DNA from: Eubacteriales bacterium
GTDB taxonomy: Bacteria; Bacillota; Clostridia; Oscillospirales; CAG-272
Direction of reading: 5' to 3'
DNA: 64,000 nucleotides
Assembly: GCA_051867895.1 (NCBI GenBank)
Contig: JBJDZH010000011.1
Span: 82,540-146,539 of the forward strand
The translations under genes were made by a program, and so were the position numbers. Position 1 is the stretch's first letter. Every line of letters starts with the position of its first letter. The notes under the pieces are model-generated. The model did no database searches, had not been told where the DNA came from, and saw nothing but the letters and a program-made list of their open reading frames with translations. Below are positions 15,611 to 31,698 of the stretch, piece by piece.

Positions 15611-17104
15611 ATGAGCAGTAATACCGGAAACACCGGCAGCAAAAGCAGTTTTCATATAGAGCCGTACAGCCTGATGCGGGATATTGCGATGAATTTCTGG
15701 GTCGTGATTCTCTCTGCGCTGATCGGCATGATGGGCGTGTTCATCTGGAGCCGGGGAATGTACGTGCCGCAGTATACGAGCACCGCGACGCTCCTCGTCA
15801 ACATGAAGAATTCCGCCTCCTATACCTATACCAATCTTGCCACCTCCTCTGAGATCGCGCAGATCTATACGGACGTTTTGGTGCAGCCGATCGTCCGGGA
15901 GCGCGCGGCGGAAAGCCTCGGCATGCCTTCCTTTGACGGAAAGGTCAGCAGCGCTGTTTTGCCCGACACGAATATCTTTACCGTTTCCGTGACCTCCTCC
16001 TCTCCGGAGGTTTCCTACAGCGAGCTCTGCGCGGTGCTGGAGGTGTATCCCGCCGTTGCCGATACGATCTTTCAGGATTCCGTCGTGGAGATCATGCGCT
16101 CCCCCAACCTGCCGACCCGTCCTTCCAACACGATCGACGGAAGAAACGGCGTGCTTGTTGTGCTCATGCTTGCCGCTCTGGCGCTCGGCCTGATCGTGCT
16201 CCTCTCCGTCACGCGGGATACCGTGAAGGATGAGACGGACTTCCGCTGCAAGGTGGACGCGAAGCTGTTCGGCACCGTTCTGCACCAGCGGGAATACGGC
16301 TCTCTGCGCGAGCTGTTCACCCGGAAAAAAATGCCGCTTCTGATTACGGACGCCCGGACCGGTTTTCTGTTTACCGAAAGTTATCAGAAAATGGCGACCA
16401 AATTCGAGTACTTCAAACGGGTGGAGGGCAGCAGCATTTTCCTCATTACCAGCGTGGCGGAGAATGAGGGTAAATCCACAACAGCGTCCAACCTCGCGCT
16501 TGCCCTCGCGGGCAGGGGCAGCCGTGTCCTGTTGGTGGATATGGACTACAAAAAGCCCGCGATCCAGCATATTTTCGGACTGACTCCTCCCGAAAAGACG
16601 GATTTCACCGTCGTGCTGACGGGAAAGACGGCGGTCGAGGACTTCCGCTTTACGCAGTATCGAGATACGACGCTCCGCCTTGCTCTGAACGCCCGGCCGC
16701 ATGAGGATTATGTCCGATGGATCCACACCCCCGCCGTTTCCGCCGCTTTCCGGTATCTTGCGGAGCATTCCTTTGATTATATCCTCATCGACACGCCGCC
16801 GCTTGCCGTCTCCGCCGATGTGATGCCGCTTTCCGATATCGCGGATAAAACGCTTCTCGTCGTGCGGACGGACCGCGACTATACTGCGGATATCAACGAT
16901 GCCGTCCTCTCCTTTCGCGAAAATAAGAACGGCGCGTCATTTGCCGGCTGCATCCTGAACGACGTCCATCGTGAGTTCTCCCTACTCGGGCAGTTCGGCG
17001 CCGACGAATCCGGGAAAAGCGGCGCATATTACGGCTATTCCGGAAAGTATTCCAAGTATTCCGAGTATTCCAAATATTCCGGGTACTCCGACTACCACAA
17101 ATAA
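15611..17104 (+). CDS. Wzz-domain / BY-kinase fusion (polysaccharide co-polymerase tyrosine autokinase), copy 1
   Basis: Two TM helices flank a Wzz-like loop. Walker A is ENEGKSTTASNLA, A' is LLVDMDYKKP and B is YILIDTPP. The C-terminal Tyr cluster is YYGYSGKYSKYSEYSKYSGYSDY. Confidence 0.85.
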   Translation: MSSNTGNTGSKSSFHIEPYSLMRDIAMNFWVVILSALIGMMGVFIWSRGMYVPQYTSTATLLVNMKNSASYTYTNLATSSEIAQIYTDVLVQPIVRERAAESLGMPSFDGKVSSAVLPDTNIFTVSVTSSSPEVSYSELCAVLEVYPAVADTIFQDSVVEIMRSPNLPTRPSNTIDGRNGVLVVLMLAALALGLIVLLSVTRDTVKDETDFRCKVDAKLFGTVLHQREYGSLRELFTRKKMPLLITDARTGFLFTESYQKMATKFEYFKRVEGSSIFLITSVAENEGKSTTASNLALALAGRGSRVLLVDMDYKKPAIQHIFGLTPPEKTDFTVVLTGKTAVEDFRFTQYRDTTLRLALNARPHEDYVRWIHTPAVSAAFRYLAEHSFDYILIDTPPLAVSADVMPLSDIADKTLLVVRTDRDYTADINDAVLSFRENKNGASFAGCILNDVHREFSLLGQFGADESGKSGAYYGYSGKYSKYSEYSKYSGYSDYHK

Positions 17105-17107
17105 GAA

Positions 17108-18604
17108 ATGGCAGAGCCTATGAACGATAAGAACACACAGCCGCCGCTCAAAACCGAAGAGGAGAGCGAGGGCGTTTCCATCCGACCGTTTCTGGAGGCG
17201 ATCCTCCGGTTCTGGTATGTGATCCTGATCCTGGCGCTCCTCGGCGGCGCTCTCATGTTCTGCAGAAGCTATGCCCGCTACACGCCGGTGTATCAGTCCT
17301 CCGTCACCTTTACCGTCCATACGCAGGAGATCAGCTCCTCCGGGATCGGCATGACGTCGTATTCCTTCGCGTATAACCGCGCGACCGCCAAGCAGCTTTC
17401 CTCCACTTTCCCGAATATCATCAAAAGCAACATCCTGCAGGATATCCTCTGCAATGATCTCGGGATGTCGTACCTTCCCGTGTCGCTGTCCGCCGCTTCC
17501 GTCGCCGGCACGAATATGTTTACTATTACGGCAAAGGGAAACGATCCGCAGCTCACCTACGACGTGCTGCAGTCCGTTATCCGGAACTATCCCGCCGTGG
17601 CGGATTACGTTATCGGAAACACGGAGCTTGTAATTCTCAGCGCTCCCGAGATCCCGACGGAGCCGTCCAATGTACGCGGTTCCCGCTCCCAGTTTCTGAA
17701 GGGCGCCGTCGCCGGCGTTCTCCTCGGGCTTCTGTGGGCGCTGGTCTATGCGATTCTGCGCCATACGGTGAACACGCGCACCGACATCCGGCAGAAGCTC
17801 GGGCAGAAGTGCGTCGGCGTGCTGCCGCGGGTCAGCTTCAAAAAATACGGAAAGGATGTCAGCCGCAGCGTAACGGTTACGAATCCTCTGGTCGGCGACG
17901 GCTACCGCGAGGCGGTCCGCGCCCTTCGCAATACTGTCCTGAAATCCGCCTCGAATGGCAGCAAGGTCATCATGGTTACCAGTACGGCTCCCTCCGAGGG
18001 AAAAACGACGACAGCCGTCAATCTTGCCCTGTCGATTGCCGCGATGAAGAAAAACGTAATCCTCGTCGACGCGGACATGAGAAGCCCGAGTGTCCGGAAA
18101 ACACTCGGCGTCAAGCCGCTTGAATTCGATCCCTCCGACCGGCAGATCGTGAAGATCGCGCGCTTCAGCTTTCCGGATGACGTCTCGCTGTCCGTGATGA
18201 ATTTCAATACCGCCCGCTTTCGGCTGTGGAACATCGCGCGGCACGACAATCTCAGCTCCGTTTTTGCGATCCTGCGCAAAAACTATGATTTCGTGATCGT
18301 CGATACCTCTCCCGTCGGGTTGACTTCCGAGGCAGCCGTCGTTGGGAGCGTCTCCGACTGCGCGCTCCTTGTCGTAAGGCAGGATACCGTGCGTACCAAC
18401 CGCATCTGCGCCTCCATCGACAGTATGCAGTCGTCGGACGTGAAGCTGCTCGGCTGCGTTCTCAACGACGCGTCGGAAAGCGCCCTCGGCGGTCATGGCT
18501 ACGGCTACGGCTACGGATATAAATACGGTTACGGGTATCACTACGGCTACGGCTATAGAAGCAAGTACGGCTACGGTTCGGCGTCCGGCGGAAAGACGGA
18601 GTGA
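17108..18604 (+). CDS. Wzz-domain / BY-kinase fusion, copy 2
   Basis: Same architecture as copy 1. Walker A is PSEGKTTTAVNLA, A' is ILVDADMRSP and B is FVIVDTSP. The C-terminal GY-repeat tail is GYGYGYGYKYGYGYHYGYGYRSKYGYG. Confidence 0.85.
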   Translation: MAEPMNDKNTQPPLKTEEESEGVSIRPFLEAILRFWYVILILALLGGALMFCRSYARYTPVYQSSVTFTVHTQEISSSGIGMTSYSFAYNRATAKQLSSTFPNIIKSNILQDILCNDLGMSYLPVSLSAASVAGTNMFTITAKGNDPQLTYDVLQSVIRNYPAVADYVIGNTELVILSAPEIPTEPSNVRGSRSQFLKGAVAGVLLGLLWALVYAILRHTVNTRTDIRQKLGQKCVGVLPRVSFKKYGKDVSRSVTVTNPLVGDGYREAVRALRNTVLKSASNGSKVIMVTSTAPSEGKTTTAVNLALSIAAMKKNVILVDADMRSPSVRKTLGVKPLEFDPSDRQIVKIARFSFPDDVSLSVMNFNTARFRLWNIARHDNLSSVFAILRKNYDFVIVDTSPVGLTSEAAVVGSVSDCALLVVRQDTVRTNRICASIDSMQSSDVKLLGCVLNDASESALGGHGYGYGYGYKYGYGYHYGYGYRSKYGYGSASGGKTE

Positions 18605-18623
18605 ATCCTGGAGCGGGGCATCC

Positions 18624-19097
18624 ATGCATAGAGATCAGGCATCCGAAAATAAAGACAGGGTTCTCACAGACGGCGAGCTTTTGACGCTTTTGCAGGACTC
18701 CGGGGGAGAAATCCGGCTTGCCGTCACCGGCTCCAGCATGGCGCCGCTTTTGAAAAACGGAAAAACGACGGTCGTGCTGTCCGGCAGTTTTACGCCCTCC
18801 CGCGGCAGGATCCTGCTGTACCGTCGGGCGGACGGCTCTCTGCTTCTCCATCGCGTGAGAAAGGTACGCCGGGACGGCTGTCTACTCATGAACGGCGATG
18901 CGCAGTCCTGGTGCGAGACGATCCGCCCCGAACAGGCGGTCGCAGCAGTGGTCGGTATCGATTTCGGAAAAGGAAGAATCAAATACAACGATCCGCTGCT
19001 TTGCGCGTGGGATTTTCTGTGGTACTTTACCCGCCCCGTGCGCCCGCAGCTGTTTCGTTTTTTCGGCAGGATTCGCAAGAGAAGCGAAGGAGATTGA
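18624..19097 (+). CDS. S24/S26-family (signal-peptidase/LexA-like) serine peptidase
   Basis: GSSMAPLL (nucleophile Ser context), LLHRVRKV (candidate Lys) and MNGD. Start chosen at MHRDQ (18624); the longer ORF overlaps the preceding gene. Confidence 0.6.
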   Translation: MHRDQASENKDRVLTDGELLTLLQDSGGEIRLAVTGSSMAPLLKNGKTTVVLSGSFTPSRGRILLYRRADGSLLLHRVRKVRRDGCLLMNGDAQSWCETIRPEQAVAAVVGIDFGKGRIKYNDPLLCAWDFLWYFTRPVRPQLFRFFGRIRKRSEGD

Positions 19098-20401: not shown

Positions 20402-20407
20402 AGTCAT

Positions 20408-20450
20408 CCCCCCGCGTCCGGCTTTGCCGGACGCGGGGGGGTGTGTTTTT
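20408..20450 (+). terminator. strong intrinsic terminator ending the capsule operon
   Basis: CCCCCCGCGTCCGG / CCGGACGCGGGGGG stem with a 4-5 nt loop, followed by GTGTGTTTTT. Confidence 0.8.
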
Positions 20451-20571: not shown

Positions 20572-20600
20572 TTGCAAATACAAACGTTCTGTGCTACAAT
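20572..20600 (+). promoter_or_regulatory. sigma-A-type promoter of the RRE/peptide/rSAM operon
   Basis: TTGCAA (20572-20577), a 17-nt spacer, then TGcTACAAT (hexamer 20595-20600), in an AT-rich island. Confidence 0.5.
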
Positions 20601-20791: not shown

Positions 20792-21139
20792 ATGACGGAC
20801 GGTGAGTTATACCAATATCTCAAGGACAGCCCCGCGCCTGCGGCACGGCTCCGTTACCGGATCCGGGACGGATACTGCGTGCGTGATTTCTGCGGCGAAA
20901 CCCTTGTGATCCCCGTCAGCGGAGAAGCGATCGCCGGACAGCAGATGGCGATCCTGAGCCCGGGCGGCAGGCTTCTCTGGGACAGGCTGCAAAGCGCGCA
21001 GACCTTTGCGGATCTGCTGCTTGCCCTGCTCAGCGAATACGAGGTCGAGCGGGAAACCGCCGCGGCGGATATCCATGAATTTCTCTCAGAGCTGGATTCT
21101 CATAAATATCTGATGGTTGAAAAGGAGCCGGAAAGATGA
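20792..21139 (+). CDS. PqqD-family protein (RiPP recognition element-type peptide chaperone)
   Basis: RYRIRDGYCVRDFCGETLVIPVSGEAIAGQQMAILSPGGRLLWDRLQSAQTFADLLLALLSEYEVERETAAADIHEFLSELDSHKYL fits the PF05402 pattern. The start is uncertain; in-frame ATGs also occur at 20714 and 20606. Confidence 0.8.
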   Translation: MTDGELYQYLKDSPAPAARLRYRIRDGYCVRDFCGETLVIPVSGEAIAGQQMAILSPGGRLLWDRLQSAQTFADLLLALLSEYEVERETAAADIHEFLSELDSHKYLMVEKEPER

Positions 21140-24100
21140 AGAAACGTTTCTGTGCAATACTGATGACTGCCGCCACACTGTTTGCGGCGCTGCCCACGGT
21201 CAGTTTACCGGCGCGCGCGGCAACAGTCTACAGTGACAGCGACGCAGAATATGTATCTCTGCCTGTCACCATCCGCGACTACGCGGGCGACGGCATGCTG
21301 TTTGAGTGGAACGAGCTGGGTAATACCGGCGATCAGACAATCGGCGGCTCCACCGTGCTTCCCATTGTGAAGCATACCACGCAGGCAGGCGGCGGCGCGT
21401 ATACTGCCACGGCGGGCGACGGCTATGTCCGCTATACGTCTACCTCCACTGGTATATACATCACCTATACGATAAGCGGCGGCTATACCCGTACCCAGAT
21501 GCGCTATGCTGTGGTGAAATACCGCACTAATGGTGGTTATACTTCTCAGCCTACCATCGGTCATCGGTGGAACAATGGCGGAAACAATAATTATGTGAAT
21601 TTCCCGACAGACGGATACAATCAGCCTGAGTTCAAGACTGTCATCAAAGATTTGGGAGAGGGCAGCGATACAGTATCGCATGTGACCATCTATCCCCGTC
21701 TCGCTTCCGGCAACTATATCGATATCGCGGAGATCGCGTTTTTCTCCAGTTTGTCGGATGCGAATAGCTATGCCAGCGGTACGGTAACAGGCGGCGATGT
21801 CTACCATCACGGCAGCACAAGGGGCTACGGTCTGCTGCAGACTGTTGCTGCGGATCATTTCAACGATTTGACGGACAGTGCCGCTATCTCCGGCACGACG
21901 CTTACGGAGAACGGCACATGGAACTCTGCGGAGGTAACGACCAGTACCACCACGCTGAACAGCGGTGCGCTCCAGACACTGTACGGCTGCTATGTCCGTA
22001 CCGATCTGGTTGAGCCGAAGCTGGGCGCCAACGGCAAGCCTGTCTATACCGAGGCGGCTGTCGCCTATCTGGCAAACTATATGGCGAAGACGCTTCCTGT
22101 GGCATGGCAGAATGTCGACGGCACCTACAATATGTGGTACGTCATGGGTACCAAGCTCTTTAACGACAGCAATGTTTTTGTGGGCACGGGCGGCACCGCC
22201 ACCAGAGACCTGGCGACCGTTCTGCGCAGCATCATCACCGGCGGTCTCGGCAGCTACGCGGAGACAAAGGCAAAAACGCTCAGTCAGGTCACGGACTGCA
22301 CCACTTATTTTGACGCGGCATATTTCCTGCTGCACAACACCTTTACGGACAATCCCGGCTACGGCGTGACGGTGCCCGAATACCGGACCGTCAATCTGGT
22401 CAAGAAAACGGTGGACGGAAAGTCCTATTACGTTTACAATTCCGCCTTTGACGGCACGGTATATGACACGACAAACGGCGTGATCTACAATTCGCAGACG
22501 GATACCATCACGACCCGGGAAGGTACTACATACGTTCGCGGCAATTTGCAGCCGGAGAGCCGCTTTGACCCGATCGGCGCACTCGGCAGCGGTGCGTACT
22601 ACGGCTTGAACGGCAACCCATACGTAAGTATTGTCGGGAATGCCAGTGTGCTCAACTATTACAACAAAACCAACTACAACCTGACCCTCGAAGGACACGC
22701 CCAGTTTATCTTCTACGAGGATGACGATCTGTACTTCAACTTCACCGGCGACGACGACGTGTACCTGTACATCAACGGTGTGCGCGTGCTGGACATGGGC
22801 GGCGCGCACGCGATCTCGAAGTGCGGCATCTCTCTGAATAGTGTCAAGGATCTCTGCGGTCTGAAGGACGGCGAGGTGTACGACTTCGACTTCTTCTACA
22901 TGGAGCGGCACGGTACCGCTGCGAACTTCGGTTTGGAGACCAATATCAAGATCGTGGATCCGTCCATGCTGACCAAAAAGAACGCGTACCAGAAGGGAAC
23001 GAACGTCGGAAACTTCGGATACGTCGATCCGAGCATTCCTGTGTCCTATGGATTTGCACTGACCAATAACGGCGAAGCGAAAATTGAGGAGCTGACCTTC
23101 CGGGATAACGACATCGGTGTATATCTGACGAAGGATGCCATCGCTCTGAACAGCGAGACCAACATCCTGCAGCTTTCCGCCCGGGTGACCGATAAGGACG
23201 GCAAGGAGAAAGTCTCCTATGCCGCCGGGAATCTGACGGAGGATATCCTGAAGCAGCTGCTGCTCGCGGGACTGGAGATCGGAGATACCATTGAGATCGC
23301 CGGCTTCCAGTATACGATCCCCACTGCCGCGTGGACGGATGAAAAATTCACGAACACGGTTTACACAACGGCGATCTCCTATGGCAACAACGCTTCGCAC
23401 CGGACGCTGAACGGACTTGCCTCCTGCACCGTGCAGCAGCAGGAGTATTCTTTTGAGCATCTCCACTTCTATGAATGGGTGGGTAAAGGCGTGACTGTCA
23501 CAAAGGATGAGCTGATCGCCGCCGTAATACAGGCGGGCGTTGCGAATCCGGGCACGACTGTCCAGCTCTGCTCTCCCTCCGGCAATACGAGCGATGCGGG
23601 TATCAATCCCCGCGCCGCGTATACGGAAGGCGGCGGTATCAAGTACACCGGCGTTGTGACCGGCGCGGACACGTATTACTATAAGGTAGGCATTTACGGT
23701 CCCGTCGCCGTCACGATATACAGCTACGACGTGGCGGACAATGTGTACGTTCTGGACTACGGTCTGCCGGTGGAGCTGAACGGTCAGGATTTCGGCCTGC
23801 TTGTCAATGATACGCTGACGCTCATCGACAATCCCTATGCGACTACTGCGAGTACGGTGGGCATTACCAGCTCAACCACCAACTACGGCATGTTCAGCTG
23901 GAATGCGCCGTCGCTGAAATATACCCTGACCAACTTCATGAATGGTGAGGATAACGCACTTGTCACCGTGCAGGTGCTTGAGAACGGCGCGACAGAGCTG
24001 ACAAAGGCCACCGGTGTGCTGATGGAGGAGACGGTGCGTGTCATTCCCGCCAATGTGGTGTACTATGAGGACGATTTCGCCGGCATTACCTATATCGGCA

Positions 24101-25692
24101 CGGATAAGAACGGCTGGGTGCAGTACCGCTCCGAGGATTCATACGGTAATGAACAGAGCGCGGATCAGGACAGCTCCTACGGCTCCGATCCGAACTATGC
24201 AGCGGACAAGAAAACGACCTACACGACGCTGACGCTGGATACCAGCAACCTGAACACGTTCCAGACGGACGCCATCAACTACCTGAACAGTTATCTCGGA
24301 CTGATCGAAGGCGACGCCTCCAACGGAACGCTCAGCGGACTGGTCGTTAAGGAAACGGAGGATGTCCTGAGCTTTGAGTTCTGTGGTACCGGCTTTGAGA
24401 TTGTCAGCCGCACGACTCAGTACGATTACGCTGTCGTCTCCGTCAAGGTGGAGCGCAGGAACGCGGATGGCACCTATACCGTTGTCCGGCAGTTCCCGGT
24501 CATCACCGAAAGCAAGGGCGGCGATCTGTATCAGGTGCCGATCATCTCTGTCACCGGTCTGGAGCGCTCCGCGTACCGGGTCACGCTGAGTGCCTTCGGC
24601 AGCACGGCTACCAAAACGCGCGTACTCTATATCGACGGTGTACGCATCTATGAGCCGATCCAGGGACTGGACGAGGTGCGCTATTACAACGCGGACGAAC
24701 AGAATGCGGTATTCCTTGAGGTCAAGTCCCTGATCCAGAATGGTCAGGCGATTTATGCGGATATCTCTGATACGGACGGCGGCACAATTCTCGGGTCCGG
24801 CACGACGGTAATCGAAACGACGGACGATAGCGGATTGGTGTTGAGGAAAGCAACGAGCGTCGATGAGTACATGACATTCGGACCGAACAACGAACTGTAT
24901 CTGAACGGTTTTTTCACTACGCCAGTTCTTGCACTGTACCTTTATCCCGACAGCACGGTACCGGAGAGCGCCCGCACCGTTGAGATCGGCGCGCATCGCA
25001 AGGCAGATTCGTTATTCTACGACAATAGTCCTGCCACTCTTGTGTATGGCAGCACGGCAGCGGACATTCTGGAAATGACGCACGTGTATACCGTTTCCAG
25101 CGGGACGGAGCAGTATTATGAACTGAACGTAGAGAATCTTGTCCAGGATGAAAAAAACCGCTACCTGCTTCTGGTCGGCACGAACGAAAAAGAGGCCTCG
25201 AGTTTGAAATCACTGGCGCTGACGAACCTGAAGGTCAGCGGCTACAGCGTCAGACTGGTCGAGCCGGAGACAGCGGATGCCGCCGCGGCGAACGACCTCG
25301 CTGCAAGTCCGGCTGTGGCTGCCGTCATGTCCCTGCGCAGTCTCAGAGCCGCCTCGATGCCGAAGCCCGAGGAGCCTGTCGTTCCGGTGAATGAAAATCT
25401 GACGGTCACCTCTGCGGCTTTGATGGCGGACAACGTTGTTTCCGGCAAGTTTGCGATAGCTGCGGTTAAGGCAGGCGCGGACGCCGTGAAGCTGACGGTA
25501 GTGGACGCCGCCGGCAATGAAGTGGAGCTCGCCCGCAGCGCCTCAACGACAAAGGATGGTGTAGTCACCTTCCAGGCGATGTGGAAGGTCACCGGCAGCC
25601 GCGGTGATGTGCTTCGCTTTACTGTTCGCGTCTATGATGCAGACGGACTCGCCTCCGTCAATACGATGGACGTCACCGTCACGATCAAATAA
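21136..25692 (+). CDS. 1518-aa secreted protein with fibro-slime/PA14-like domain
   Basis: Signal peptide MKKRFCAILMTAATLFAALPTVSLPARA. The fibro-slime motif is FNFTGDDDVYLYINGVRVLDMGGAHA...DFDFFYMERHGTAANFGLETNI (about 22678-22950). AAAGGAG RBS, and the ATG overlaps the PqqD stop (ATGA). Confidence 0.75.
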   Translation: MKKRFCAILMTAATLFAALPTVSLPARAATVYSDSDAEYVSLPVTIRDYAGDGMLFEWNELGNTGDQTIGGSTVLPIVKHTTQAGGGAYTATAGDGYVRYTSTSTGIYITYTISGGYTRTQMRYAVVKYRTNGGYTSQPTIGHRWNNGGNNNYVNFPTDGYNQPEFKTVIKDLGEGSDTVSHVTIYPRLASGNYIDIAEIAFFSSLSDANSYASGTVTGGDVYHHGSTRGYGLLQTVAADHFNDLTDSAAISGTTLTENGTWNSAEVTTSTTTLNSGALQTLYGCYVRTDLVEPKLGANGKPVYTEAAVAYLANYMAKTLPVAWQNVDGTYNMWYVMGTKLFNDSNVFVGTGGTATRDLATVLRSIITGGLGSYAETKAKTLSQVTDCTTYFDAAYFLLHNTFTDNPGYGVTVPEYRTVNLVKKTVDGKSYYVYNSAFDGTVYDTTNGVIYNSQTDTITTREGTTYVRGNLQPESRFDPIGALGSGAYYGLNGNPYVSIVGNASVLNYYNKTNYNLTLEGHAQFIFYEDDDLYFNFTGDDDVYLYINGVRVLDMGGAHAISKCGISLNSVKDLCGLKDGEVYDFDFFYMERHGTAANFGLETNIKIVDPSMLTKKNAYQKGTNVGNFGYVDPSIPVSYGFALTNNGEAKIEELTFRDNDIGVYLTKDAIALNSETNILQLSARVTDKDGKEKVSYAAGNLTEDILKQLLLAGLEIGDTIEIAGFQYTIPTAAWTDEKFTNTVYTTAISYGNNASHRTLNGLASCTVQQQEYSFEHLHFYEWVGKGVTVTKDELIAAVIQAGVANPGTTVQLCSPSGNTSDAGINPRAAYTEGGGIKYTGVVTGADTYYYKVGIYGPVAVTIYSYDVADNVYVLDYGLPVELNGQDFGLLVNDTLTLIDNPYATTASTVGITSSTTNYGMFSWNAPSLKYTLTNFMNGEDNALVTVQVLENGATELTKATGVLMEETVRVIPANVVYYEDDFAGITYIGTDKNGWVQYRSEDSYGNEQSADQDSSYGSDPNYAADKKTTYTTLTLDTSNLNTFQTDAINYLNSYLGLIEGDASNGTLSGLVVKETEDVLSFEFCGTGFEIVSRTTQYDYAVVSVKVERRNADGTYTVVRQFPVITESKGGDLYQVPIISVTGLERSAYRVTLSAFGSTATKTRVLYIDGVRIYEPIQGLDEVRYYNADEQNAVFLEVKSLIQNGQAIYADISDTDGGTILGSGTTVIETTDDSGLVLRKATSVDEYMTFGPNNELYLNGFFTTPVLALYLYPDSTVPESARTVEIGAHRKADSLFYDNSPATLVYGSTAADILEMTHVYTVSSGTEQYYELNVENLVQDEKNRYLLLVGTNEKEASSLKSLALTNLKVSGYSVRLVEPETADAAAANDLAASPAVAAVMSLRSLRAASMPKPEEPVVPVNENLTVTSAALMADNVVSGKFAIAAVKAGADAVKLTVVDAAGNEVELARSASTTKDGVVTFQAMWKVTGSRGDVLRFTVRVYDADGLASVNTMDVTVTIK

Positions 25693-25704: not shown

Positions 25705-25923
25705 ATGAAAAAGCCATACAGCAAACCGCAGATTGCAGTGGAGACCGTCCGGCTCGACCATCCGGTCGCAGGCGGATGCATCGCGGATTTTGAGGATGTG
25801 AACGCTCTTGTGGGGATGGGCTACTTCGGGGACGATATGGGTTGTAAAACGGAGTGGATCGACAACGGCAACCACGATACCATCTGCTATCACAGCAATG
25901 TTCAGGTTGCGTTTCTCTCCTGA
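25705..25923 (+). CDS. 72-aa Cys-containing small protein; candidate RiPP precursor
   Basis: AAGGAG lies 7 nt upstream. The sequence is MKKPYSKPQIAVETVRLDHPVAGGCIADFEDVNALVGMGYFGDDMGCKTEWIDNGNHDTICYHSNVQVAFLS. It sits 9 nt from the next gene and carries YxxPxI, GG, three Cys and a C-terminal Ser. Confidence 0.5.
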   Translation: MKKPYSKPQIAVETVRLDHPVAGGCIADFEDVNALVGMGYFGDDMGCKTEWIDNGNHDTICYHSNVQVAFLS

Positions 25924-25931
25924 CCGGAACC

Positions 25932-26759
25932 ATGGCGGTGTTTGAAGCGGAGCTGCAGATCGCCGGGATGACCTTCCGCATAGACGCCCCCTTCCGCATC
26001 ACTCTGCCGGAGTCCTTCCGTCCGTTTCAGCGGACGGAAGGAGCGTCCGGCGAAATTGACTGTCAGATCACGGTTCATGTCGGCAGCATGTCGGATTTTG
26101 CCGTCAGAAATACGGATATCGTGCAGAAGTACCACTGGAGAGACGCGGAATATGTCGTGCGGGTGGAGTCCCCAGGACGCCCGGACGAGATCCGCCTCTT
26201 TATTCCCGAGGCGTACGCGGAGAGCTTTGCGCGCAGCGCGAACTGGCTTCTCTACCTCGCGCCGGAGCGTGCGCTTCTGCGCGGAGGACGGATCGTTCTG
26301 CACGCGTCGGCGGTCGTCCGGAACGGGCAGGCGGTCGTTTTCACTGCGCCGTCCGGCGGGGGCAAATCCACGCAGGCGCAGCTGTGGCAGAAGTACCTTC
26401 ATGCCGAGCCGATGAACGGGGACAAGATCGTTCTCTATGCGGCGGGGGACGCCCTGATCGCCAGCGGAAGCCCGATTGCGGGCAGCTCCGGGATCTATCG
26501 GGATCTGCAGGCGCCGGTGCGGACCATCGTCCGCCTGGAGAAAGCGCCGTTCAACCGGCTCACGCCGCTGTCCGCGCGCGAGTCACTTCTGCTTCTCTAC
26601 GGAGAGGCGGTAAAGAGCCGCTGGGACGAACGCTTCAATCAGAGACTGCTCTCCGCTCTGGAACCCATGACCGCTCTGACCGAGTATTACAGATTTTCCT
26701 GCCTTCCGGAGCCGAGCGCGGCTGACTGCCTGCTTCGCCGGATAGAGAACCCTTCATAA
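25932..26759 (+). CDS. HPr-kinase-like P-loop protein (HprK C-terminal-domain homologue)
   Basis: LHASAVVRNGQAVVFTAPSGGGKSTQAQLW, with the P-loop at 26349-26372. No clear RBS, so the start is uncertain. Confidence 0.65.
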   Translation: MAVFEAELQIAGMTFRIDAPFRITLPESFRPFQRTEGASGEIDCQITVHVGSMSDFAVRNTDIVQKYHWRDAEYVVRVESPGRPDEIRLFIPEAYAESFARSANWLLYLAPERALLRGGRIVLHASAVVRNGQAVVFTAPSGGGKSTQAQLWQKYLHAEPMNGDKIVLYAAGDALIASGSPIAGSSGIYRDLQAPVRTIVRLEKAPFNRLTPLSARESLLLLYGEAVKSRWDERFNQRLLSALEPMTALTEYYRFSCLPEPSAADCLLRRIENPS

Positions 26760-26794
26760 ACCGGAATTCAAAATTGAATTGAGGACAATTGACC

Positions 26795-29281
26795 ATGAGA
26801 AGGAATCAAAGATTACGCCGGCTTCTGACCCTTGTTCTGGCAGTGCTCTTTGCCGCGGCGCCGCTGCCGGTGTGCGCGCAAAGCAGCGCCGGCTGGGCGT
26901 TTGCCTCCGACACGGAGATCTATTGGGTGCAAACGGACGATTCACAGTACACGAACGAAGATCTGCGTGCGCAGGTGCAGCTCTTTGCACAGGAGCTGCA
27001 GGCAAAGAACCTGACGGCGTCCGTGCCGGGCATTACCTATGGCGTGCAGTCGGCGGCGGGCGATCATGATATCGTCCTGATTCTGGATTCCTCTCTCGGG
27101 ATCGCCGCCGAGGGCTTCCGCCTGGAAATCAGCGGTGGGCAGCTTCTGGTGAACGCCTCCGACGCGGATGGGCTGTTTTACGGCTGCCGCTTTGTCGAGC
27201 AGACCCTTCTGACCGGACGGGATCTGAGCCAGGTGTGCGGCGTTGTGAACAGCCCGGATTATCCGGAACGGGCGTTTTTCCTGGACTGCGGACGCAAGTA
27301 TTATTCTCCCGAATGGATCAAGAATATGATCCGGGAGATGTCCTGGTCGAATATGAACGCCATCTACCTCCATTTCTCGGAGGAAATGGGCTTCCGCCTG
27401 GAGAGCAAGACCTATCCATGGCTGGCAGGCGGCGACAACACGCTCTGCGTCGGTGGGGCGAGCGCAGCGGACGCGGATGAGAACAACAAGTACATCACAC
27501 AGGAAGAAATGCGTGAGATCGCAGAGGTCGCGCGGCTGTACCATGTGGAGATCATTCCCTCGCTGGACAGCCCAGGGCATATGAACTATGCCGTCAAAAA
27601 ATACAATGCGGTAAACGGCTCCGATATCGGGAACTATTTCCACTATAACGGGAAAACTGCCATCGTTCAGGGATCCGGTACGGAGACGGCGCAGAAGAGC
27701 TATTCCCGCGGCATCGACATTTCCAATCCGGAGGCGCGCACGTTCGCGCAGAACCTGTACCGGGAATATGCCGCGTTCTTTGCTGAGCTTGGCTGTACCA
27801 AGTTTGACATCGGCGGCGATGAGCTTCTCGGTTGGGGTTCTGCGGTTGTCTCCACCTCATCCGTGTCCAGGTGGCAGCAGCTGGATCATTGGAAAACCTA
27901 CGCGCAGCAGAGAAGCGGAAGCAGCAAAGCCGTCGCCTACGACGCGTTCATGTATTATATGAACGATATCTACGATATCGTCAAAGGCTATGGCTACACC
28001 TCCATCCGCATGTGGAACGACGACGCGCTCCGTACTGCGGATACCGGCTGGAATCAGGTCGTCACCCTGAACGAGGGGTTTGAGATCCAGTACTGGACGC
28101 CAACCGCTAACAACAGCAAAAACAACATCAATTCCTATCTGAACGCCGGATACGACGTCTACAACTTTCTGAATTCCTATAACTACTATGTACTCGGAAA
28201 GGTACACGATGGAACCGGCGATTATCCGGGCTGCACGCCGGAGCGCATCTACATGAACTGGGCGCCGAATATCTTCACTCCGTATGGCGGGAGCGCCGCC
28301 GATACGTCGATCACCGATACGCGTGTCAAAGGCAGTGCTTTCTGCGTCTGGTGCGATCAGCCCAAGACGGAGGGCGAAGTTGTCGTACGGGCAACCGTTC
28401 TGCCGCGCCTGCGCGCCAACGGCGCCAAGGCGTGGGACGCCGATCTGCAAAGTTCACTTTCCTACAGCGACTGGTATGCCCGTCAGGAGAAACTCGGCGA
28501 CGCGCCCGCCAATCTGCCCGCAGCGCCGGAAATTCAGGTGTACATATCACCTGACCTGACGGCATTGAAGAAGGCTGTCGCCGAATATGAGAGCATGGAC
28601 GGCGCCCTGTATACGGAGGAGAGCTTCGCGCTGTATACGGAAGCAGCCGAAACGGGAAAAACGGTTCTGAACAGCAAGAGACCGACGCAGGAACAGGCGG
28701 ATGCCGCGACCTCCGCACTTGAGGCAGCAAAGGCAGCGCTGCGTCTCTCTACCAGCATCGATTATGCGGCGCTGGACGCAGAGCTTGCCGCCTTTGACGC
28801 TGTGAGTGCCGCAGATTATACTGCGGAGACATACACCGCCTACAAGGTGATGGCGGAGAGCGCGCGCCTGCTGCGCAGCCGCACGGATGCGACTCAGGAA
28901 GAGATCGATGCGGTGGCGGACCGTCTCGCTTATCTGAAAAAGCAGCTTCGTGCTGTCGACGCAATCACCGGTGAGAACTGCATTCTGTCATTTGCCTCGA
29001 TGTCTTCCTATGCGATGCGTGGCAAGGTCTTTATCTTTGCCGTCACTGTCCTGACGGATGCCGAAATCGATCACTTCGAGATATATGACGAGGCAGGAAG
29101 CCGTGTTGATATCTGTTACGCAATCTGGAATAAAGTGAATCCGAGAACGCCCGAAAAGCGGAGTGTTCAGATTCGCGTCCGCGCGGAGGTTTTCGGGCAG
29201 CATACCTACACCGTCTACGCGATTCGCGCGGATGGAACGCGTTCTCCCGACATGAAGTCACTGACAGTACTGGTCAAGTAA
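26795..29281 (+). CDS. secreted GH20 beta-N-acetylhexosaminidase with C-terminal helical (FIVAR-like) repeats and an Ig-like end
   Basis: Signal peptide MRRNQRLRRLLTLVLAVLFAAAPLPVCAQS. ERAFFLDCGRKYY, IIPSLDSPGHMNY, and the catalytic pair in FDIGGDELLGW (D-E codons 27818-27823). Confidence 0.85.
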   Translation: MRRNQRLRRLLTLVLAVLFAAAPLPVCAQSSAGWAFASDTEIYWVQTDDSQYTNEDLRAQVQLFAQELQAKNLTASVPGITYGVQSAAGDHDIVLILDSSLGIAAEGFRLEISGGQLLVNASDADGLFYGCRFVEQTLLTGRDLSQVCGVVNSPDYPERAFFLDCGRKYYSPEWIKNMIREMSWSNMNAIYLHFSEEMGFRLESKTYPWLAGGDNTLCVGGASAADADENNKYITQEEMREIAEVARLYHVEIIPSLDSPGHMNYAVKKYNAVNGSDIGNYFHYNGKTAIVQGSGTETAQKSYSRGIDISNPEARTFAQNLYREYAAFFAELGCTKFDIGGDELLGWGSAVVSTSSVSRWQQLDHWKTYAQQRSGSSKAVAYDAFMYYMNDIYDIVKGYGYTSIRMWNDDALRTADTGWNQVVTLNEGFEIQYWTPTANNSKNNINSYLNAGYDVYNFLNSYNYYVLGKVHDGTGDYPGCTPERIYMNWAPNIFTPYGGSAADTSITDTRVKGSAFCVWCDQPKTEGEVVVRATVLPRLRANGAKAWDADLQSSLSYSDWYARQEKLGDAPANLPAAPEIQVYISPDLTALKKAVAEYESMDGALYTEESFALYTEAAETGKTVLNSKRPTQEQADAATSALEAAKAALRLSTSIDYAALDAELAAFDAVSAADYTAETYTAYKVMAESARLLRSRTDATQEEIDAVADRLAYLKKQLRAVDAITGENCILSFASMSSYAMRGKVFIFAVTVLTDAEIDHFEIYDEAGSRVDICYAIWNKVNPRTPEKRSVQIRVRAEVFGQHTYTVYAIRADGTRSPDMKSLTVLVK

Positions 29282-29343: not shown

Positions 29344-30432
29344 ATGGAACTGAAAAGCTACATATTTCACAAAGGTGCAGCCCGTCATATTCCGGTCAGC
29401 GGGACGTTTGAGCTGACGCCCCGGTGTAACCTGCAATGCGAAATGTGCTATATCCGCATGAGCTCCGCTGAACAGAAGGAGGCGGGACGTGAGCGGACGG
29501 CGGACGAATGGATCGCGCTGGGCAGAGAAGCGGTGGATGCGGGCATGGTCTATCTGCTGCTGACAGGGGGAGAGCCGCTGCTCCGTGCAGATTTTCCGCA
29601 GATCTACCGTGAACTGGCGAAGATGGGGGTCGTGCTTTCCCTGAATACGAACGGAACACTCCTGACGGACGGGATTCTCGAATGCCTCTGCGAGCATCCG
29701 CCGGAAAAGGTGAACGTCACCCTGTACGGTGCGTCCGCCGCAACGTATGAAAAAGTCTGCGGAAGCGCAGCCGCCTTTTCACGCGCATCGGACGCGGTCC
29801 GCAGAATGAAACAGGCGGGAATTCCCGTTTTCATCAATACCACCTTCACGAAGAACAACGCCTCTGATATGGAGGATATCGTTTCGTTTGCCCGGGAAGT
29901 CAAGGCGCCCATCCGCATGACGAGCTATGTTTTTCCTCCAGTCCGCTGCGCCCGGGAGGCAAAAACGGACTGCCTGCTCCCGCCTGATGCATACGGCGCT
30001 TTGGCGGCGCGGTTCGATCTTCTTACCTTAGATGCGGAGCAGAAAAAGCGGCGCAGACAGACGATTGACCATATTATGGGAAATATGGAGCCCCCCCCCG
30101 CAGATGAGAAAAGCAGGGCATCGTCCTGCATGGCGGGGAGAGGGGCATTCTGGATCACGTGGGACGGAAAGCTGCTGCCCTGCGGTATGCTGCCTGCCTC
30201 AGCGGTGGAGCTGGGGAACAGTACTTTCCGTGAAGCATGGGAGCGCCTGCCGCACGTCATGAACCGGATACAGTTACCCGTCGAATGCAGCACCTGCCGC
30301 GCGAGGCGGATATGTTCGGTGTGTGTTGCGGTGACGCAGAACGCAGAGGGCGATCCCTCCGTGCCTCCGAGGGATCTGTGCAGGTACGCACAGTCCTATT
30401 TGTCCGGCTTCCTGAAAAGCGGGGAGCGGTAG
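29344..30432 (+). CDS. radical SAM enzyme with C-terminal SPASM domain
   Basis: CNLQCEMC (29425-29448), GGEPLL, SSCMAGRGAFWITWDGKLLPCG and CSTCRARRICSVC (30286-30324). Confidence 0.9.
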   Translation: MELKSYIFHKGAARHIPVSGTFELTPRCNLQCEMCYIRMSSAEQKEAGRERTADEWIALGREAVDAGMVYLLLTGGEPLLRADFPQIYRELAKMGVVLSLNTNGTLLTDGILECLCEHPPEKVNVTLYGASAATYEKVCGSAAAFSRASDAVRRMKQAGIPVFINTTFTKNNASDMEDIVSFAREVKAPIRMTSYVFPPVRCAREAKTDCLLPPDAYGALAARFDLLTLDAEQKKRRRQTIDHIMGNMEPPPADEKSRASSCMAGRGAFWITWDGKLLPCGMLPASAVELGNSTFREAWERLPHVMNRIQLPVECSTCRARRICSVCVAVTQNAEGDPSVPPRDLCRYAQSYLSGFLKSGER

Positions 30433-30486: not shown

Positions 30487-31698
30487 TTATGGTATGATGT
30501 CGTACAGCTTCAAAAGCTCAATGCGCTCTTTGCCCAGCCGGAGAGAGTCTGCGGCACTGTTGTTCTGGTGGGCGCACATTTCGGATGCGTAGTGGAAAAT
30601 GCGCTGCGCCCAGGCAACCGGCAGCAGAACCGGATGCTTTTTCAGATACACATACTTTTTCTCCATGTACGCACGCCCGGGGAAAACGGAACGAAGAACG
30701 CCGCGGCGTTTCCCTGTGCGGCTGGAATTCACAGCGTTCAGCGTGACAGTCGAGGAATGGAGACGTGCCTCGTCGGAGTGACCGTATATTCCGCCGGCAA
30801 ATACATCGTGCAAAAGCGGCTCAATGGAAACGTGCGGCTTTTCCCATGGCGCCGGGAGCGAAATGTTCATGCCGAGCGCAGTGCGGTCGATTTCAAATAC
30901 AGCGGCTGCAAAGGTTGCGGCGTGTACGCTATCACACTGGCTGTGCAGCAGAGTCCAGTCAATCCGGTCGTAATAGGCATGCGCCCAGAGACCGATGTCA
31001 TAGAACTGCCGAAGACCTACACCGGACAGGACGAAATGCTTGTAGGCGTGCAGCAGAAGATAGAGCAGATGCTCGTGAGGCTGCATGGTCAGATAACCGC
31101 TGATCTCCTCACAGCCGGCGGGGAGGTGCGCAAAGAAACGGTTGATCTCGTTATGCGCGTCTTCGGAGAAATCAAACAGACGCCGGTGCAGTTCGATATA
31201 AAGTGGACTGCCTTCCTTTTTATAGGAGATTTCATCTGCATCCTCCAGCTGCTGCGGAGGGCAGGCAGTATGGAGTCCGTTTTCGAGAAGGACGGCGTGG
31301 CACATGCTGAATTCGGCGTCGGGGATGAAGAGGTCGTCGTCTGCGCTGATACGGTGATCCGGAAGCGGATAGAGACGGCTGCAAAGCTGCCCCTTCACCA
31401 CAATGGGGTGGAGCCCGGCGGCACGCAGTTTCCGGTACAGCGCCGAAAATTCCGCCGCACGGACAGCCTGCGTCAGCACCTGTCCGATCACCTGTCGTTT
31501 TACCGCGGCGAAAAGGGCTGCGTTAGCCTGGGCGGCGTCTGTTTCTCGTACAGTCTCAAAGACGATCGGCAAGAGCCTTTGCTGATCGGCAAGCGCAAAG
31601 ACGGACGGATAATCCGCCCCGGCGGGAGACGCGGACGTGCCCTGCACTGCGGCACGCATGATCGCCAAAAGATCGCTTTCAGTCTGTGTGAGACTCAT
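30487..31698 (-). CDS. PF14907-type (NTP_transf_5) putative nucleotidyltransferase
   Basis: LHPIVVKGQLCSRLYPLPDHRISADDDLFIPDAEF...YIELHRRLF matches the family's lKG..l...Yp....R...DiDllv ... veLH pattern. Confidence 0.7.
   Translation of the reverse strand: MSLTQTESDLLAIMRAAVQGTSASPAGADYPSVFALADQQRLLPIVFETVRETDAAQANAALFAAVKRQVIGQVLTQAVRAAEFSALYRKLRAAGLHPIVVKGQLCSRLYPLPDHRISADDDLFIPDAEFSMCHAVLLENGLHTACPPQQLEDADEISYKKEGSPLYIELHRRLFDFSEDAHNEINRFFAHLPAGCEEISGYLTMQPHEHLLYLLLHAYKHFVLSGVGLRQFYDIGLWAHAYYDRIDWTLLHSQCDSVHAATFAAAVFEIDRTALGMNISLPAPWEKPHVSIEPLLHDVFAGGIYGHSDEARLHSSTVTLNAVNSSRTGKRRGVLRSVFPGRAYMEKKYVYLKKHPVLLPVAWAQRIFHYASEMCAHQNNSAADSLRLGKERIELLKLYDIIP

Follow-up and report, generated by a model that had tools for sequence, protein, structure and literature searches.

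A conserved gene pair of a giant secreted protein and a RiPP-type precursor peptide in gut Clostridia

A gene for a giant secreted protein of 1518 aa (21136..25692, + strand) and, directly behind it, a gene for a precursor-like peptide of 72 aa (25705..25923, + strand) were analyzed in a 64,000-nt stretch of contig JBJDZH010000011.1, from an Eubacteriales bacterium of the CAG-272 lineage whose genome is 77% complete. This stretch is referred to as the window, and coordinates are window positions. The small gene has features of the precursors of peptides synthesized on the ribosome and modified after translation (RiPPs), and clusters encoding RiPPs are commonly regarded as making peptides that act on their own, for example antibiotics or signals. 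Comparison across related genomes showed that the system has a pair of genes at its core, a giant bearing a conserved C-terminal module and the peptide gene directly behind it. From predicted domains and gene neighbourhoods, we give about even odds (roughly 0.5) to a reading in which the giant would be a secreted glycan-binding protein and the peptide, once matured, would act with its C-terminal module and not as a free-standing antimicrobial. The giant-peptide set is a new variant among RiPP-type systems and its module is undescribed; in the literature on RiPPs, radical SAM (rSAM) enzymes, HPr kinase and adhesins in Oscillospiraceae, no description of a giant-peptide pairing was found.

Within the window the pair lies in a block of six genes, in the order PqqD-family protein, giant, peptide, HprK-like protein, GH20 hexosaminidase and rSAM enzyme. 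Family-level searches covered 401 genomes of the same family and added distant giants of 1483-2362 aa at 27-42% identity; wherever those loci extended downstream of the giant, a gap of ~10-25 nt separated it from a peptide gene of 73-84 codons. Giants at 22-38% identity (1385-2831 aa) were likewise all followed by the peptide, which is retained behind the giant even where the PqqD, HprK-like, GH20 or rSAM genes are missing, reordered or not in the region. A further 35 peptide loci were sorted by what lies upstream. In 24 of these an open reading frame (ORF) of 952-2831 aa ended 11-38 nt before the peptide gene, apart from two outliers of -31 and 118 nt at which the ORF or peptide start is uncertain; at 5 loci the upstream ORF was cut at a contig end, 1 locus was uninformative, and 5 had no giant upstream.

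The giants that precede a peptide have a single region in common. When analyzed with jackhmmer, all 29 of the 29 complete giants shared only aa ~850-1400 of the window protein (23683..25335, + strand), with E-values of 1e-96 to 1e-146. This module of ~550 aa is always near the C-terminus of the giant and is usually followed by a terminal Ig-like domain, while the PA14/fibro-slime region (aa 230-700) was present in only 8 of the 29. No invariant Cys was found among the invariant columns of the module profile (A5); invariant residues of the module fall in the motifs YYED, FxFxGTGF and GPNNE. A reverse search with this profile recovered the module in 39 of the 401 genomes, and a search with the peptide profile (A4) recovered the peptide in 36. 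The module-bearing giants tallied numbered 60, of which 52 were informative. The peptide gene was immediately downstream of the giant, with a gap of 11-38 nt, in 45 of these 52, was upstream in the same cluster in 3 (loci L089, L103 and L104), and was not in the cluster in 4 (L093-L095 and L097), so that 48 of 52 have the peptide in the same cluster. Loci consisting of the pair only also exist (L051, L052, L054, L062, L067 and others), and HprK-like and rSAM genes were located elsewhere in the genome for 4 of the 5 genomes with a stand-alone pair; the modifying enzymes can be encoded elsewhere in the genome. In a collection of 1.84 billion proteins the module is represented by 337 clusters at 50% identity, with full-length proteins of up to 4668 aa. 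One short giant of 761 aa (L049, G417:C134, 3626-5911) consists of a signal peptide and essentially only the conserved module, and even so it has PqqD before it and the peptide behind it, followed by GH20 and rSAM genes.

The peptide itself combines a YxxP leader, three invariant Cys, a CYH motif and a C-terminal Ser. Its homologues form 28 clusters in public data, and across pairs its length is ~72-85 aa. Nine positions of the A4 alignment are invariant (Y5, P8, C25, F41, C47, C61, Y62, H63 and S72) despite peptide identities as low as 28%; Y5 and P8 constitute the YxxP leader motif, C61-Y62-H63 the CYH motif, and S72 is at or adjoining the C-terminus. Versions of 120 aa with a Gly/Ser-rich insertion were observed after module-bearing giants in another genus (L098, 2655-3017; L099, 5994-6356). 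Read-through of the stop codon, which would join the peptide to the giant, was considered and rejected: the 12-nt gap of the window is in frame, and the other gaps (11-38 nt) are not multiples of three.

With respect to the block as a whole, 40 close relatives, 13 of them genomes of the same genus, yielded no match to the giant or to the 72-aa peptide in direct searches; PqqD homologues in those relatives belong to a compact module of HprK-like, PqqD, (SLH-like protein) and S24 genes beside capsule genes. This absence at first resembled insertion of the giant gene, and the wider searches reversed that view. Relatives of the giant were present in 11 species-representative genomes, and the order PqqD, giant, peptide, HprK-like, GH20, rSAM was observed in 7 of the species-level loci with enough sequence (L035-L040, with duplicates L046/L047, which are the same contigs as L037 and L036). 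Giant identity in the loci with the full six-gene order is 43-64%, the other genes being similarly diverged, and a further locus (L042, giant at 39% identity) has the same order with no detectable HprK-like gene. The flanks of the block are unrelated between genomes, with the exceptions of window/L035 and L037/L038, which indicates that the six-gene block is self-contained; S24, PF14907 and capsule genes accompany it only in the window and L035. The giant gene is thus an integral, conserved member of the cassette, and synteny, both in the 7 block loci and in the distant giants which are still peptide-followed, strongly supports the suggestion of the sequence-only reading that the large protein belongs to the system. 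In the wider family an extra gene was seen between the peptide and HprK-like genes (L059, 11397-12176; L064, 11309-12073; L079, 11349-12080; also L068, L084 and L058). Its product, of ~230-280 aa, has a single transmembrane segment at the N-terminus, a conserved G.Y.G.YMEDGSDE motif and no Pfam match; the gene is lacking in the subclade of the window.

The sequence-only reading had placed its emphasis on the junction between PqqD and the giant. The PqqD gene (20792..21139, + strand) encodes a discrete RiPP recognition element (RRE), assigned by its match to PF05402 (43 bits, cut-off 23.4) and by the positions of its orthologues. As had been reported, the ATG of the giant (21136-21138) overlaps the TGA of PqqD (21137-21139) in an ATGA arrangement, AAAGGAG at 21121-21127 stands 8 nt ahead of this ATG, and the 72-codon ORF begins at 25705, 12 nt past the TAA stop codon of the giant; all three were confirmed from the sequence, and GGAG directly follows the giant stop, ahead of the 72-codon ORF. 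ATGA overlaps of 4 nt are frequent at operon junctions, and such an overlap is unremarkable alone. PqqD orthologues are directly 5' of the giant in L035-L042, and the ATGA overlap with a GGAG Shine-Dalgarno sequence at the giant start is retained in L035-L039. Elsewhere PqqD is the last gene of the cluster; the coupling of PqqD to the giant is specific to the subclade of the window. The emphasis on it was therefore misplaced, and the widespread junction is that between giant and peptide; in L036 the peptide ATG overlaps the giant stop.

Transcription signals in the window fit a single unit. A strong terminator-like hairpin (20405..20443, + strand; an 18-bp stem with 15 GC pairs, then a T-run) closes the upstream capsule operon, and a promoter-like site lies ahead of PqqD (20572..20600, + strand), identified by consensus match only, with 9 of 12 consensus positions and TG before the -10 hexamer. 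The hairpin scan detected no strong terminator-like hairpin at the PqqD-giant or giant-peptide junction, as would fit a single transcription unit; its two weak short-stem matches (21726-21738 and 22872-22888) are both within the giant ORF. The capsule operon contains CpsB, two Wzz-kinase fusions, an S24-like peptidase and LCP genes. The two Wzz-plus-tyrosine-kinase fusions are full-length and in tandem (15611-17104 and 17108-18604), with 3 nt between them and Tyr-rich C-terminal tails.

Analysis of the giant itself pointed to an adhesin-like or lectin-like protein built from arrays of beta-sandwich domains. At ~165 kDa, estimated from its length, it is far from the megadalton scale once attributed to it. 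Homologues fall into at least 424 clusters in public data. A Sec-type signal peptide (aa 1-28; 21136..21219, + strand) was read by eye from MKKRFCAILMTAATLFAALPTVSLPARA/AT. The fibro-slime/PA14 domain occupies aa 509-605 (22660..22950, + strand), where TIGR02148 matches aa 512-605 (nt 22669-22950) at 73.2 bits (cut-off 45), in agreement with the fibro-slime module earlier placed at about 22678-22950; PA14 (PF07691, 32.6 bits, cut-off 24) is the sole Pfam domain reported for the giant. Pfam searches of aa 60-510 and aa 850-1400 gave nothing even at E<=1, and neither did a search of PDB sequences with the giant profile at E<=1. AlphaFold2 models of aa 29-1100 (predicted local distance difference test score, pLDDT, 71) and aa 1040-1518 (pLDDT 76) are both almost wholly composed of beta-sandwich domains. 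Foldseek matched these models to the SraP adhesin, cadherin arrays, Bacteroides SGBP-B and CBM-like parts of GH2 enzymes, and the C-terminal part to MAM/CBM22/CBM4 jelly-rolls and an Ig domain, the conserved module being modelled as tandem jelly-rolls. The terminal Ig-like domain (aa ~1415-1518; 25378..25689, + strand) is modelled at pLDDT >90, has titin-/Ig-like Foldseek matches and is common to 16 of the 29 distant giants. No catalytic fold was found in the models by Foldseek, which returned only generic beta-sandwich, CBM and Ig matches. No LPXTG motif or transmembrane segment is present at the C-terminus, which ends in ...VTVTIK, and no recognised wall anchor (LPXTG, SLH or other wall-binding repeats) was found from Pfam and the C-terminal sequence. 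From its domains, and from gene fusions in the family, the giant would be a non-catalytic glycan-binding adhesin of PA14/fibro-slime, CBM-like jelly-roll and Ig domains. The family as a whole looks like secreted glycan-binding adhesins or glycosidases in which the "working" N-termini vary and the C-terminal module is constant.

Downstream of the peptide the HprK-related, kinase-like protein (25932..26759, + strand) was assigned from remote family matches and is syntenic in most clusters. It is followed by a secreted GH20 beta-N-acetylhexosaminidase with a FIVAR domain (26789..29281, + strand; PF00728 at 137 bits), which is retained in the cassette, and by the syntenic radical SAM/SPASM-type enzyme (29344..30432, + strand; PF04055 at 89 bits), a presumed peptide cross-linker. 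Searches of NCBIfam equivalogs for named rSAM/SPASM maturases (PapB, StsB, SkfB, PqqE, QhpD-like and others) gave best scores of 67-127 bits against cut-offs of 300-650. The distant giants of L055, L061 and L079 have a GH20 catalytic domain fused at their N-terminus, alongside discoidin, MucBP or PA14 domains, and these fusions functionally link the separate GH20 gene of the window to its giant; the giant of L088 carries VWA and tip-pilin-like domains. Two further genes are occasional companions. A PF14907 nucleotidyltransferase (30487..31698, - strand; 129 bits, cut-off 31) was seen close to the cassette in the window, L035 and L064 only, and most orthologous cassettes have none nearby. An S24/S26-type (archaeal signal-peptidase-I-like) peptidase in the capsule operon (18621..19097, + strand), outside the conserved six-gene block, is a candidate leader peptidase. 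Its matches to PF00717 (21.7 bits, cut-off 23.3) and TIGR02228 (22.4 bits, cut-off 51.85) are weak, both being below the cut-off, and its homologues adjoin PqqD and HprK-like genes in 15 of 17 loci of relatives.

By homology, maturation would begin with binding of the YxxP leader by PqqD. The rSAM/SPASM enzyme would cross-link the three invariant Cys, probably as thioethers, the HprK-like protein would phosphorylate a Ser, most likely the invariant C-terminal one, and the S24/signal peptidase I (SpI)-like peptidase of the adjacent capsule operon would remove the leader, as LppS does in the clusters discussed below. Domains and gene fusions suggest that the giant works together with the secreted GH20 hexosaminidase, and conservation of gene neighbourhood suggests that the matured peptide may act with the C-terminal module as a small partner, ligand or anchoring adaptor.

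Among studied systems, the nearest is that of the linear polyphosphorylated peptide (LPP) clusters of Bacilli (Popov et al., Nat Commun 2026, PMC13381572). In these clusters, which are located in capsule loci, the roles of the RRE, HprK kinase and SpI-like peptidase are established, the leader is of the YxxP type, the site of phosphorylation is Ser3 of the core and the PF14907 nucleotidyltransferase is a core gene, while the final product and its biological role are still unknown (PMC13381572). As with LPP clusters, the window has a discrete PqqD-type RRE (above the PF05402 cut-off) and a YxxP leader, a putative HprK-like gene (remote 24-bit match), a candidate archaeal-type SpI/S24-like peptidase (below cut-offs) and a PF14907 nucleotidyltransferase, and both are in or beside capsule loci and have no lasso cyclase. 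In contrast, LPP clusters have an MsbA-like exporter, which the window cassette does not, and the rSAM, GH20 and giant genes of the window are not found in LPP clusters; the text of the LPP paper (PMC13381572) contains no occurrence of "radical", "PA14", "adhesin" or "Clostridia". The window peptidase and nucleotidyltransferase also differ in being outside the six-gene block, most orthologous cassettes lacking them nearby, and the window peptide has three invariant Cys and a C-terminal Ser. When the LPP leader YxxPxVLxHQxIxFETxxS is compared with that of the window, YSKPQIAVETVRLD, YxxPx[I/V] and ..ET are common to both, whereas the HQ and FET..S parts are not.

Two other peptide systems and one family of surface proteins offer partial parallels. 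Quinohemoprotein amine dehydrogenase has a gamma subunit, QhpC, which is a small Cys-rich, leader-bearing peptide cross-linked by the rSAM/SPASM enzyme QhpD, and which after maturation becomes a subunit of a larger secreted protein whose gene belongs to the same operon. The likeness is one of analogy, with no homology shown, and consists in an rSAM-cross-linked small peptide serving as partner of a larger secreted protein; the window differs in having no QhpA/B-type subunits, no subtilisin-like QhpE and no ABC exporter QhpF, and its large partner looks non-catalytic. Paeninodin is phosphorylated on its C-terminal Ser. Lasso peptides of the paeninodin type have an HprK-like kinase and a PF14907 nucleotidyltransferase as tailoring enzymes and a [Y/W]xxP leader (PMC13381572). 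A lasso system was nevertheless rejected for the window, which contains no cyclase (the only Asn_synthase match, PF00733, is on contig C1); the B2 protease PF13471 was not found in the 77%-complete genome. With respect to the giant, we know of no association of Fibrobacter fibro-slime proteins with peptides or RiPPs. The window giant resembles these proteins in matching TIGR02148 above the cut-off, and differs from them in that only some of the peptide-linked giants have the fibro-slime part. Fibro-slime/PA14 proteins of Fibrobacter succinogenes are described as cellulose-binding surface proteins (PMC4668043).

A peptide that acts with the surface protein is plausible, would fit the near-obligate pairing and is the reading we prefer. 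Several observations weigh against it. Synteny alone cannot separate physical partnership from co-expression, adjacent genes being co-inherited anyway. The kinase assignment of the HprK-like protein rests on remote matches of 24 bits to TIGR04352 (cut-off 200) and 24 bits to TIGR04249 (far below cut-off), with no Pfam match, and the SPASM match of the rSAM enzyme, at 17.6 bits, is below its cut-off of 21.5. The cassette has no exporter, as no PF00664 match was found in the window and the nearest ABC_membrane gene of the genome (C11:56264-59010) is ~45 kb off, outside the window; the cassette thus offers no evident route by which a cytoplasmically matured peptide would meet a Sec-secreted giant. 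Four module-bearing giants have no nearby peptide (L093-L095 and L097), although three of them, L093-L095, are orthologues in one genus whose genomes each carry an orphan peptide elsewhere (L082, L060 and L063). Finally, L071 is a cluster of PqqD, peptide, HprK-like and rSAM genes without a giant. A more specific version of the preferred reading is tentative and, in our estimate, has less than an even chance: the cross-linked, phosphorylated peptide would be a dedicated subunit or anchoring adaptor which docks on the 550-aa module and completes or tethers the surface protein. If so, the phosphorylated C-terminal Ser might link the complex to a capsule or wall polymer.

The strongest competitor, to which we likewise assign a minority chance, is that the two genes are merely co-expressed. 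The peptide would then be an ordinary secreted or signalling RiPP (an antimicrobial, quorum or biofilm signal) and the giant would have no role in its function. In its favour, the genes of the window cassette are closely packed in the manner of an operon, the LPP clusters of Bacilli do without a giant protein, and the RRE, HprK-like, rSAM and S24 set is also found without a giant, next to an ABC exporter (L020), or with several peptides (L014). Co-expression fits poorly with a pairing which persists without adjacent enzymes and spans giants at only 22-30% identity, and with a peptide that co-varies with one specific C-terminal module and not with just any highly expressed gene. The peptide core is also unusually conserved for a bacteriocin, given its nine invariant positions at 28% identity, and the cassette contains neither an exporter nor an immunity gene.

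That the giant itself is the substrate of the rSAM enzyme or kinase, modified in the cytoplasm before Sec export, with the small ORF as a decoy or accessory, we regard as improbable. rSAM/SPASM enzymes which modify large secreted proteins are known, namely the anaerobic sulfatase-maturating enzymes (anSME) that act on sulfatases, and the translational coupling of the RRE gene to the giant in the subclade of the window would suit such a mechanism. However, the YxxP motif for RRE binding is in the small peptide and not in the giant, the universal module has no invariant Cys, and the coupling to PqqD does not extend beyond that one subclade.

Chance insertion of the giant into an older RRE-peptide-kinase-rSAM operon, with no functional link, is less probable again, despite the absence of the giant from the 40 close relatives and the existence of the giant-less cluster L071. 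Across 8 species-level loci whose flanks differ the gene order is the same, protein identities of 39-64% argue against these loci being copies of one recent mobile element, the peptide accompanies 48 of the 52 informative module-bearing giants, and same-genus relatives without this giant carry a different giant before a different YxxP peptide. The sequence-only reading had listed insertion among its alternatives and asked whether the giant always lies between RRE and peptide. It does so in the subclade block and does not in L071, whose set has no giant. A recent or simple insertion is rejected on the synteny data. The part of that proposal which stands is the older operon: giant-less relatives of the RRE, kinase and rSAM set exist (L071, L020 and L014), so that the enzymes as a set probably predate their association with giants. 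As for polymorphic toxin loci, in which a large secreted protein is followed by a small ORF within ~15 nt and which the layout of the pair resembles, a secreted toxin with its immunity protein is hardly credible here, since the giants have a conserved C-terminus and a variable N-terminus, opposite to the pattern of polymorphic toxins, neither Foldseek nor Pfam revealed a toxin fold, and the small ORF carries an RRE leader and is found together with RiPP enzymes.

Other arrangements of giants, peptides and maturation genes were observed in the course of these searches. Genomes of the same genus contain what looks like a second, separate giant-plus-peptide system (L015, 4770-9349; L017, 75-2983; L018, 2249-6717; L024, 2180-9342; L025, 129-9336; L029, 5055-9077). 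Its giants are of 921 to 3018 aa, without the module of the window and with a shared C-terminal region of their own of ~200 aa; downstream are a Cys-free, acidic YxxP peptide of 39-48 aa and then HprK-like, PqqD, SLH-like protein, S24 and capsule genes, with no rSAM gene. In L084 (G228:C59, 1-16619) a capsule flank with two Wzz-kinase genes, S24 and LCP (each 44-55% identical to the corresponding gene of the window) is followed by a convergent cassette with a giant of a different subfamily (2780 aa), an arrangement which suggests that the site beside the capsule operon hosts interchangeable giant-peptide cassettes. Of the giant-less loci, L020 (G034:C23, 5291-8274, - strand), from another family, comprises S24, a fused HprK-like/PqqD protein (392 aa), rSAM, a 55-aa YxxP peptide and an ABC transporter. 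L014 (G024:C74, 3534-10267) has two rSAM genes, at least three tandem Cys-rich YxxP-type peptides (73-88 aa), and HprK-like, S24-like and PqqD genes, with no giant.

These data tie a RiPP-type peptide to one undescribed module of giant glycan-binding proteins across many genera of gut Clostridia, some module-bearing giants carrying GH20, MucBP, discoidin or VWA domains. Were the peptide to complete, anchor or regulate the giants, this would be a new functional role for RiPPs and would give a function to an uncharacterised domain family of 337 clusters. For the related LPP and paeninodin systems, which are located in capsule loci, it would also supply a concrete hypothesis of what their biological role might be. 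Should the peptide prove to be a docking subunit, a whole family of adhesins and glycosidases of gut Oscillospiraceae would depend on it, and the pairing would bear on how uncultured members of this family attach to and feed on host and dietary glycans.

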